Positions 36,540-37,400 of a DNA stretch of 64,000 nt are shown in pieces. The stretch covers positions 1,248,001-1,312,000 of the forward strand of contig CM000150.2 of the NCBI GenBank assembly GCA_000004695.1. Direction: 5' to 3'. Made by a program: the position numbers and the translations under genes. Source of the stretch: Dictyostelium discoideum. Its lineage: Eukaryota. The stretch's first letter is position 1. Each line of letters starts with the position of its first letter. The notes beneath the pieces were generated by a model. The model worked only from the letters and a program-made list of their open reading frames with translations. It was not told the DNA's origin and made no database searches.

Positions 36540-37202
36540 ATCGATTAGCCAAAAAATATTAATCACCATCAGTATTATCCATTATTATCTGGTACAATTG
36601 TTGGGTATTCTTGAGTTTGAATAAAATGTATTTTTTGTAACCTGATTCAATCATGTGGTGGTGGTGTGAATATAAATACTAATAATATGGTTTGTCCATA
36701 TCGATTAATGTTTGGATCGTGCAAAAATAATTGACCAAAGTCTCATTCAAATGATTTGTTAGACATTCATTTTTATAAATATTGAAACTCAAAACATTGG
36801 TTAGCTATACCTCTATTGAAAACCAATGTTTTGGCTTGTAATATTTGAAAGATTCCAAAAAACATATCTTACAAATTATTTTAATAAAACATTAGTCAAA
36901 GATTCCTTCACGATTCAAACATTAATCCAATCATGATGGTAACAATAACCATTTGAACATTCACCACATTATTACAATTTTCATATTCACAAACTCTACT
37001 TTTATATCCAATAAAAGGAACTATATTATTTATATGATGAATACATTTTTCTTTGATCTTTAATTTGGATTAATGAAAATCATCACCACCACCACCACCA
37101 ATACAAATTCCAACAATTGAAAAAATACTATATTTTGATGGCCAACCTATTTGCATTAAAAACAACTATCATTGTCATATCTATAATTATAACTACCATA
37201 TT

Positions 37203-37236
<34 letters not shown>

Positions 37237-37400
37237 GACTATGTTATTTTTATATTAATATAAATGAATTGAAAAGATTTGTTTTAGGTTAACTTTAACC
37301 AATATTTTTCAAGTTTTTTTGGTTGAATATGTATAAACTTCTTTTTCACTATTAATCTTCACCCAAAGAATTGTAGATTAAAAAATAAAATAAAATATAA
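36540..37400. other. ORF-free island about 860 bp long with atypical composition (lower A/T, no homopolymer runs). It contains a 13-bp perfect inverted repeat (caaaacattggtt at about 36793 and aaccaatgttttg at about 36823, 17-nt spacer) and inverted GTGGTGGTGGTG / CACCACCACCAC motifs at about 36652 and about 37083
   Basis: No ORF of 60 aa or more on either strand, although the sequence complexity is like coding DNA. The inverted repeats were read directly. It may be a ncRNA gene, a MITE-like element or a decayed gene fragment. Confidence 0.35.

Follow-up and report, generated by a model that had tools for sequence, protein, structure and literature searches.

What is the origin of a stretch of DNA that has the composition of a gene but no reading frame to match it? 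The question is posed by an island at positions 36540-37400 of the window (the whole 64,000-nucleotide stretch of Dictyostelium discoideum AX4 chromosome 1 that was analysed), which lies upstream of the Hsp90 gene hspD in the 2.8-kb spacer that separates it from snrnp70. The evidence set out below indicates that this island very probably derives from a free-standing endonuclease gene of the intein-like LAGLIDADG type, now dead, whose rearranged remains lie on the minus strand and have no function of their own. Window positions equal chromosome 1 positions minus 1,248,000, a conversion that we verified for hspD (DDB_G0267400) as well as for each of the three snrnp70 exons (DDB_G0268004). The former occupies 32990-35391 on the minus strand, has two introns and yields a spliced protein identical to XP_647482; the latter starts at 38207 on the plus strand, divergently from hspD. 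A first-pass annotation, made from the letters of the window, had placed the island between these two genes, and both coordinates and protein identity bear it out. It had also described the island as coding-like in composition and distinct from intergenic DNA, and as devoid of any open reading frame (ORF) of 60 amino acids or more. Both descriptions hold: the G+C content (GC) is 0.21-0.28 in the island as against 0.08-0.17 in the remaining, flanking spacer, the longest ORF starting with ATG, GTG or TTG has 48 amino acids, and the longest stop-free run has 68 codons (37057-37260).

The affinity of the island became apparent from comparison loci. One of them, from a second D. discoideum assembly (L001), was reached through a single-exon neighbouring gene; the others, which were drawn via a 90% Hsp90 cluster, are from D. 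firmibasis (L002), D. citrinum (L003, L004), D. dimigraforme (L005), two strains designated ‘D. cf. discoideum’ (L006, L007), and the wild D. discoideum strains ACTFIR (L008) and ACTFIW (L009). ACTFIR carries a family gene for a Cys/His-rich protein of 196 amino acids. Nucleotides 54-236 of its coding sequence (CDS; codons 18-79) align by blastn with the minus strand at 37074-36898 (71.9% identity over 185 nucleotides, E 1.6e-24), and a tblastn search with residues 26-66 finds the island with an E-value of 5.5e-5 and an identical GYCYHH motif. The same CDS also matches the plus strand (blastn E 6e-19, with codons ~82-121 at 36810-36936), where tblastn places residues 76-100 at 36792-36866 (E 1.1e-4); this segment, the right arm of the hairpin considered below, is 75.7% identical to L008 18698-18595 and 81.7% identical to L009 6408-6467 by blastn. 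At the far end of the remnant a C-terminal block matches L008 17049-16901 (blastn 69%, E 2.6e-15 with lenient scoring), a stretch that corresponds by tblastn to residues ~684-725 of a 729-residue family protein; tblastn with residues 699-720 yields an E-value of 0.61, which is weak when taken alone. At the opposite end there is a 5' flank that is common to a second family copy in ACTFIW, where it (L009 5711-5875) sits just upstream of a family pseudogene at 6137-7569. What the island retains of the gene is codons ~18-130, for the N-terminal Cys/His-rich domain, and no more than ~45 codons from its end; the ~550 codons in between (~135-684), both LAGLIDADG motifs included, are gone. The coding-like composition of the island finds its explanation in the family GC of ~0.25 (0.245-0.255 in the family genes, 0.265 in the island), and would have been retained from that source. 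The coordinates of these segments, and of the other features of the island, are collected in Table 1.

Table 1. Segments, repeats and transcript models of the island, in window positions. ‘Sense’ refers to the putative parent gene, which is read on the minus strand.
Feature	Position	Strand	Basis or remark
Whole putative relic: pseudogene of an endonuclease-like gene (Cys-rich + LAGLIDADG_3), rearranged and internally deleted, including what is left of the 5' and 3' flanks	36508-37479	-	
5' flank common to second family copy, strain ACTFIW	37314-37479	-	L009 5875-5711, 78%; L007 4945-4862, 86%
Sense copy of family codons ~18-66, reading ...KEKCIHHINNIVPFIGYKSRVCEYENCNNVVNV..GYCYHH	36933-37074	-	Stop at 37070-37072; frameshift ahead of GYCYHH
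Right hairpin arm: family codons ~82-121 (PPMENNVLGCKVCSIPKNICVDDHIDQ...), duplicated in inverted orientation (plus-sense)	36813-36936	+	tblastn, blastn
Left hairpin arm: sense copy of family codons ~85-127, end YLYS(HHHH) vs YLYSNYHC	36668-36812	-	Local alignment to L008 CDS
C-terminal block and 3' flank remnant (LYQIIMDNTDGD*YFLAN vs LYKITLSKDSGDFFIAN)	36508-36647	-	Abuts codon ~130
Core imperfect inverted repeat (long hairpin)	36703-36927	unstranded	Self-comparison, folding; perfect stem = ENNVLG codons
(GTG)4	36656-36667	+	Sense strand (CAC)4 = HHHH, at the family's NYHC position
(CAC)5	37084-37099	+	Sense strand (GGT)5 = GGGGG, within N-terminal stretch MQIGWPSKYSIFSIVGICIGGGGGDDFH*
(ACT)11	37204-37236	+	(AGT)11 on sense strand; outside the block common to strain ACTFIW
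CUFF_152_1, single-exon intergenic lncRNA model	36436-37365 (chr1:1284436-1285365)	+	Rosengarten et al. 2016, PMC5295588, supplementary files 11, 19
CUFF_153_1, intergenic lncRNA model	36656-37159 (chr1:1284656-1285159)	-	PMC5295588, supplementary file 19; pseudogene sense strand

With stops in every frame, frameshifts throughout and the endonuclease core absent, the island does not hold a live member of the family. One could still imagine a live, unannotated protein-coding gene of a different kind, assembled from several short exons; its coding-like composition, and a minus-strand frame with a single stop in 84 codons (37165-36911), would be in keeping with this. However, the stops interrupt every frame, the island offers neither AT-rich intron-like gaps nor splice sites of the GTAAGT type, the transcript model CUFF_152_1 is a single exon, and in the second D. 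discoideum assembly, where the island is identical to that of AX4, the spacer between snrnp70 and hspD contains no called gene. With the catalytic portion of the parent missing as well, we regard a live gene as the least probable of the readings considered here, to the point of being barely credible. Two protein-level searches were negative: 620 residues of concatenated stop-free island translations returned no match, with a search method that misses clear homologues, and a word-indexed search with the 729-residue family protein found only that protein itself, the method being insensitive. These word-indexed negatives are uninformative because the same method missed homologues that were found by tblastn and phmmer. 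When given D. discoideum snrnp70, it failed to recover the protein with its own sequence, and it likewise missed relatives of the 729-residue protein that are 42-50% identical to it, so that its negatives are not to be relied on where proteomes are AT-rich and of low complexity.

The endonuclease ancestry also accounts for the structural feature that had first drawn attention to the island, namely a perfect 13-bp inverted repeat reported with a 17-nucleotide loop. The perfect arms are real (36790-36802 and 36821-36833), but the loop between them (36803-36820) has 18 nucleotides. They form the tip of an imperfect inverted repeat of ~225 nucleotides centred at ~36814 (self-BLAST E 4e-33), whose outer arms at 36703-36773 and 36857-36927 are 76% complementary and which extends more weakly to ~36655-36990. 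When folded as RNA, the segment 36690-36940 reaches -64.3 kcal/mol (z -6.9) in the plus-strand and -77.9 kcal/mol (z -9.3) in the minus-strand orientation, with none of 200 shuffled sequences doing as well. The hairpin exists because its two arms represent the same stretch of the family gene in opposite orientations. The endonuclease gene has lost its core, and codons ~82-121 have been duplicated in inverted orientation, probably by a fold-back repair event, with the product then presumably decaying neutrally.

The first-pass annotation had further seen an oppositely oriented flanking pair in a (GTG)4 run and a (CAC)5-6 run. Both runs are present (the former as GTGGTGGTGGTG), but they are not partners of each other: the centre between them lies at ~36877, out of register with the centre of the repeat, and in the alignment of the two arms the sequence right after (GTG)4, TGTGAATAT, pairs off with TGTGAATAT at ~36990-36982 in the other arm. 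They are unrelated coding-type repeats, which specify His and Gly runs on the sense strand, and not terminal inverted repeats. This bears directly on another candidate origin, that of a non-autonomous DNA transposon, of the foldback type or resembling a miniature inverted-repeat transposable element (MITE), with the GTG and CAC runs as its ends. Such an element would be consistent with a strong inverted repeat and with the differences in presence or absence that are seen at this spacer between species. Yet, besides the runs being out of register, the repeat is internal to a recognizable gene remnant, neither terminal inverted repeats nor a target-site duplication were seen, and, family genes aside, neither the 64-kb window nor any of 12 loci yielded a further copy. 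We therefore consider a MITE-like origin highly improbable. Mobility does seem likely for the parent family, though of a kind other than that of a MITE.

What, then, was the parent gene? Beside hspD, ACTFIR has the 196-residue Cys/His-rich protein followed by a 398-residue protein, and ACTFIW has a fused ORF of 298 amino acids. The 729-residue protein (P0036; ACTFIZ_004967, labelled a hypothetical protein) is encoded beside hspD in the ‘cf. discoideum’ strain ACTFIZ (L006), and an intact ORF of 944 amino acids, which aligns to it with an E-value of 2.5e-147, occurs beside an Hsp70 gene in ACTFIW (L011 18291-21125). When 1.84 billion representatives were searched exhaustively with phmmer, only five family members (P0036-P0040) came up, all of them from new Dictyostelium assemblies, along with one distant metagenomic match; of these, P0039 is from ACTFIR, 3 Mb away from the hspD locus. 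Intact family genes were found solely in wild Dictyostelium strains, and the family appears to be undescribed. Its members share a conserved N-terminal Cys/His-rich domain. The LAGLIDADG_3 assignment comes from Pfam (PF14528, cut-off 22.5 bits; P0036 31.7 bits, P0037 27.4 bits), whose threshold is passed by the 729-residue protein and by the 398-residue ACTFIR protein; the 944-residue ORF scores 12.8 bits on its own. There is, in addition, a weak match of the family to the intein part of an RtcB model, and blocks resembling the ends of a Hint domain can be discerned by eye in the 729-residue protein (GDTLISFGF...; ...FFIANGFAIKH). Hidden Markov models (HMMs) of Pfam and NCBIfam detect no Hint family in these proteins, PDB sequence searches with the family were empty, with no match to the PI-SceI chains, and AlphaFold run on a five-sequence family alignment gave a predicted local distance difference test (pLDDT) score of 31, too low for the model to be of use.

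As to the age of the remnant, the adjacency of snrnp70 and hspD is kept in all of the fetched loci but that of ACTFIR. The first-pass annotation had proposed conservation in D. firmibasis as a check, and no island is found there: the spacers of D. firmibasis, D. citrinum and D. dimigraforme, which are 1.5-1.7 kb long, show only A/T-run matches to it. Weak GC bumps occur in the spacers of these three species. Within D. discoideum, in contrast, the island is shared. An orthologous block in ACTFIW covers window positions 36366-37171 (L009 4962-4132, 89% identity), and one in ACTFIR covers 36374-36862 (L008 21850-22350, 88%), where the fetched locus ends within the island. The ‘cf. discoideum’ locus L007 retains the hairpin centre only (window 36680-36866, 78%). 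The same junctions are present in L008. Since all the junctions are common to L009 and the fold-back centre to L007, the rearrangement predates the divergence of these lineages. Hence, the earlier suggestion of a recently decayed gene was right about the decayed gene, whose family can now be identified, but the decay is not recent, as its rearrangements are common to wild strains and, in part, to ‘cf. discoideum’. In strain ACTFIZ the spacer holds a different insert of 3.1 kb (L006 6112-9239), with a called gene of 187 amino acids (6565-7374) that is rich in PSPHK/HHHTN repeats; this insert is unrelated to the island. The hspD-snrnp70 spacer looks like a general insertion hotspot.

Could the remnant have acquired a function at the level of RNA? 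Both of its strands are represented in a catalogue of long noncoding RNAs (lncRNAs), where the transcripts are named as CUFF models with no origin stated (PMC5295588). CUFF_152_1 and CUFF_153_1 cover the same DNA as the island, and are here interpreted respectively as antisense and sense transcripts of the endonuclease pseudogene; they would be by-products of the pseudogene or of a promoter, with no function of their own. A third model, CUFF_151_1, lies just upstream of the hspD start at 35567-35796 on the plus strand (chr1:1283567-1283796), antisense to the direction of the promoter. The candidate of an unannotated structured RNA, which had likewise been put forward at the first pass, is correct inasmuch as both strands are catalogued lncRNAs, but there is no sign of selection on the structure and no Rfam match, either at the gathering score over the whole window or, beyond chance-level matches, at E <= 10 over 36300-37600. 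The best sub-threshold Rfam matches, to several microRNA (miRNA) families at 23-31 bits as against cut-offs of 88-96, fall on a T-run/A-run palindrome at 36323-36377; these are a composition artefact.

A more specific proposal would cast the hairpin as a functional gene for small RNAs, namely a precursor of the miRNA-like or endogenous small interfering RNA kind that arose by the inverted duplication and silences active copies of the family. Its ingredients are in place, in the form of a long stable hairpin, transcription of both strands and arms that copy the coding sequence of the family in sense and in antisense, and there is a parallel in the published D. discoideum mir-1184, which maps to a pseudogene exon. 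Against this, the island locus is absent from the table of DrnB-dependent miRNAs (Liao 2018 Table S1), and four strings derived from the arms, as RNA or DNA, are absent from the miRNA supplements of Liao 2018 and Edelbroek 2024. Nor do the stem mismatches show a strand bias (G.U versus A.C 7:5, p 0.77), and covariation amounts to three double-sided pair changes where 1.6 are expected, a count reached by 94 of 500 shuffles in a comparison of four sequences only. In AX4 ~10 nucleotides have been deleted from one arm relative to the wild strains, weakening the stem, in L007 most of one arm has been lost to decay, and AX4 has no known intact target. We hence judge a small-RNA gene to be unlikely, if less so than a live protein-coding gene or a transposon. 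Given the lack of covariation, of strand bias and of an entry in the published miRNA table, we interpret the hairpin as a scar of folding back that evolves neutrally. A role for it as a source of small RNAs is possible, if unsupported. Further, the 4.7-kb spacer insert of L007 contains a second strong hairpin (6787-7177), which consists of inverted family fragments (codons 273-315, pair 6855-7177) with a minimum free energy of about -74 kcal/mol per 240 nucleotides. This second fold-back is independent of that in the island, and such scars therefore recur in these clusters.

Some observations sit uneasily with the interpretation of the island as inert endonuclease debris. First, the segment 37160-37400, inclusive of the (ACT)11 run, has an origin that an endonuclease relic does not explain. 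Second, the C-terminal remnant is a weak alignment in AT-rich DNA. Third, the orthologous hairpin of ACTFIW (-109 kcal/mol, z -13.5) is stronger than an arm divergence of ~25% would suggest, for which arm-to-arm gene conversion or selection for pairing may be responsible. Finally, transcription of both strands combined with a long hairpin is the very substrate that RNA interference needs.

The remnant gains its wider meaning from the company that it keeps. Family copies or their wrecks, as found by tblastn, occur near hspD at all five loci from D. discoideum and ‘cf. discoideum’ (AX4, L006-L009), and none is found within ±10 kb of hspD in D. firmibasis, D. citrinum or D. dimigraforme. Three of the five loci also contain displaced fragments of the 3' end of hspD itself, encoding residues 614-700 (L009), 628-700 (L006) and 657-700 (L008) together with 50-150 nucleotides of the 3' untranslated region (UTR). 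These fragments have 91-95% nucleotide identity and are inverted relative to hspD. The AX4 window, L007 and L011 lack host 3' fragments of this kind. Gene annotation has been misled by these clusters: an annotated ‘gene’ of 148 amino acids in ACTFIW (L009 7979-8801) is a displaced hspD 3' fragment, and long gene models in L007 and L011 fuse endonuclease copies with neighbouring genes.

A comparable arrangement is seen at Hsp70. In ACTFIR, at the site of P0039, two internally deleted copies of a sister subfamily lie downstream of the Hsp70 gene (L010 10001-14714 / L012 14335-19048), 2.4 kb from the full gene, and next to them an inverted fragment encodes residues 586-641 of Hsp70 with ~105 nucleotides of its 3' UTR (L012). 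In ACTFIW (L011 13279-13618, 18291-21125) it is the intact 944-residue ORF that lies at this site, with an element bearing an rve integrase between it and the Hsp70 gene; an Hsp70 3' fragment is thus present in one of the two strains, ACTFIR and not ACTFIW.

The ACTFIR locus is also the one in which hspD and its promoter together run opposite to their orientation in AX4 and the outgroups. On either side of this inverted segment lie inverted copies of the hspD 3' flank (L008 8814-9019, 10001-12526 and 14846-15090), which suggests a flip-flop by recombination between displaced 3' ends. Although there is no general excess of diversity along the 3' half of hspD, variation is concentrated in a hotspot of ~30 nucleotides around its stop codon (window 32990-33010), which is TAG in AX4 and ACTFIR, TGA in ACTFIW and TAA elsewhere. 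The last six codons of the ACTFIR gene include four synonymous changes, its stop is followed by an extra CCTTATGG, and the displaced fragment of this strain is of a different type from its full gene. The hotspot could be an endonuclease target under evasion. No 3'-end variation hotspot was seen at Hsp70.

These clusters recall the WHO elements of the yeasts Torulaspora and Lachancea, which are free-standing genes for intein-type LAGLIDADG endonucleases with a Cys-rich domain (Coughlan et al. 2020, PMC7282813; Osborne et al. 2026 preprint, 10.64898/2026.08.13.744650). They form strain-variable clusters of genes and pseudogenes beside the conserved host gene FBA1, interspersed with fragments of the host 3' end, and were presented by their discoverers as a third category of homing element, found only in these two genera of budding yeasts (PMC7282813; 10.64898/2026.08.13.744650). 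By analogy, we tentatively put forward, as a reading that is plausible yet somewhat short of probable, that a WHO-like form of homing of independent origin operates in Dictyostelium: free-standing endonucleases would cut near the 3' ends of hspD and Hsp70, insert beside them, and leave behind displaced 3' ends, dead genes and fold-back scars. As an extension of this, the inverted copies of the hspD 3' end would let the whole of hspD flip. Such flipping also forms part of our main reading of the island: where opposed copies of its 3' end allow the hspD segment to invert, as seen in ACTFIR, debris from insertions on the 3' side would be left on the side of snrnp70, and this is probably why the AX4 island lies upstream of hspD.

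If this scenario holds, it would represent the first system of the WHO type outside budding yeasts and would suggest repeated evolution of this way to parasitize an essential gene. The structural variation seen near hspD among wild strains would thereby find an explanation, and there would be site-specific nuclease candidates whose natural targets lie in Hsp90 and Hsp70. The island by itself is ordinary debris, a pseudogene with a catalogued lncRNA, although it would supply an origin for two ‘lncRNAs’ of the reference strain; its significance lies in the family to which it points.

Homing systems in which the endonuclease gene adjoins the gene that is cut are already known in phages, where the free-standing Seg and Mob endonucleases of T4 achieve intronless homing by co-conversion. 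The Dictyostelium clusters resemble these in that the endonuclease gene is situated beside, and not inside, the putatively cut gene; they differ in that the phage enzymes are of the GIY-YIG or HNH type and are not known to leave host-gene fragments. In terms of the enzyme itself, a core of the LAGLIDADG_3 type is shared with the HO endonuclease of S. cerevisiae and with VDE (PI-SceI), the intein of VMA1, and the Hint-like blocks, as discerned by eye, would extend this likeness. However, the Dictyostelium genes are not embedded in a host protein, give no evidence of domestication and lack a Hint domain detectable by HMM. A possible local source of LAGLIDADG domains exists in D. discoideum itself, in the form of the nuclear Ddi RPC2 intein with its possibly degenerate LAGLIDADG endonuclease (Goodwin et al. 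2006, PMC1635734), but this intein is in-frame within RNA polymerase III. Compared with WHO, the hosts are Hsp90 and Hsp70 as opposed to FBA1, the clusters occur in Amoebozoa, the Cys-rich domain stands at the N-terminus and not at the C-terminus, the 3' fragments run opposite to the host gene from which they derive, a general excess of diversity in the 3' half of hspD is lacking, and PDB sequence searches give no match to PI-SceI. The AX4 island contributes only debris to this comparison. What the loci do have in common with WHO is the organization as a whole: endonuclease genes and pseudogenes, and fragments of the host 3' end, set beside a conserved essential gene and varying from strain to strain.

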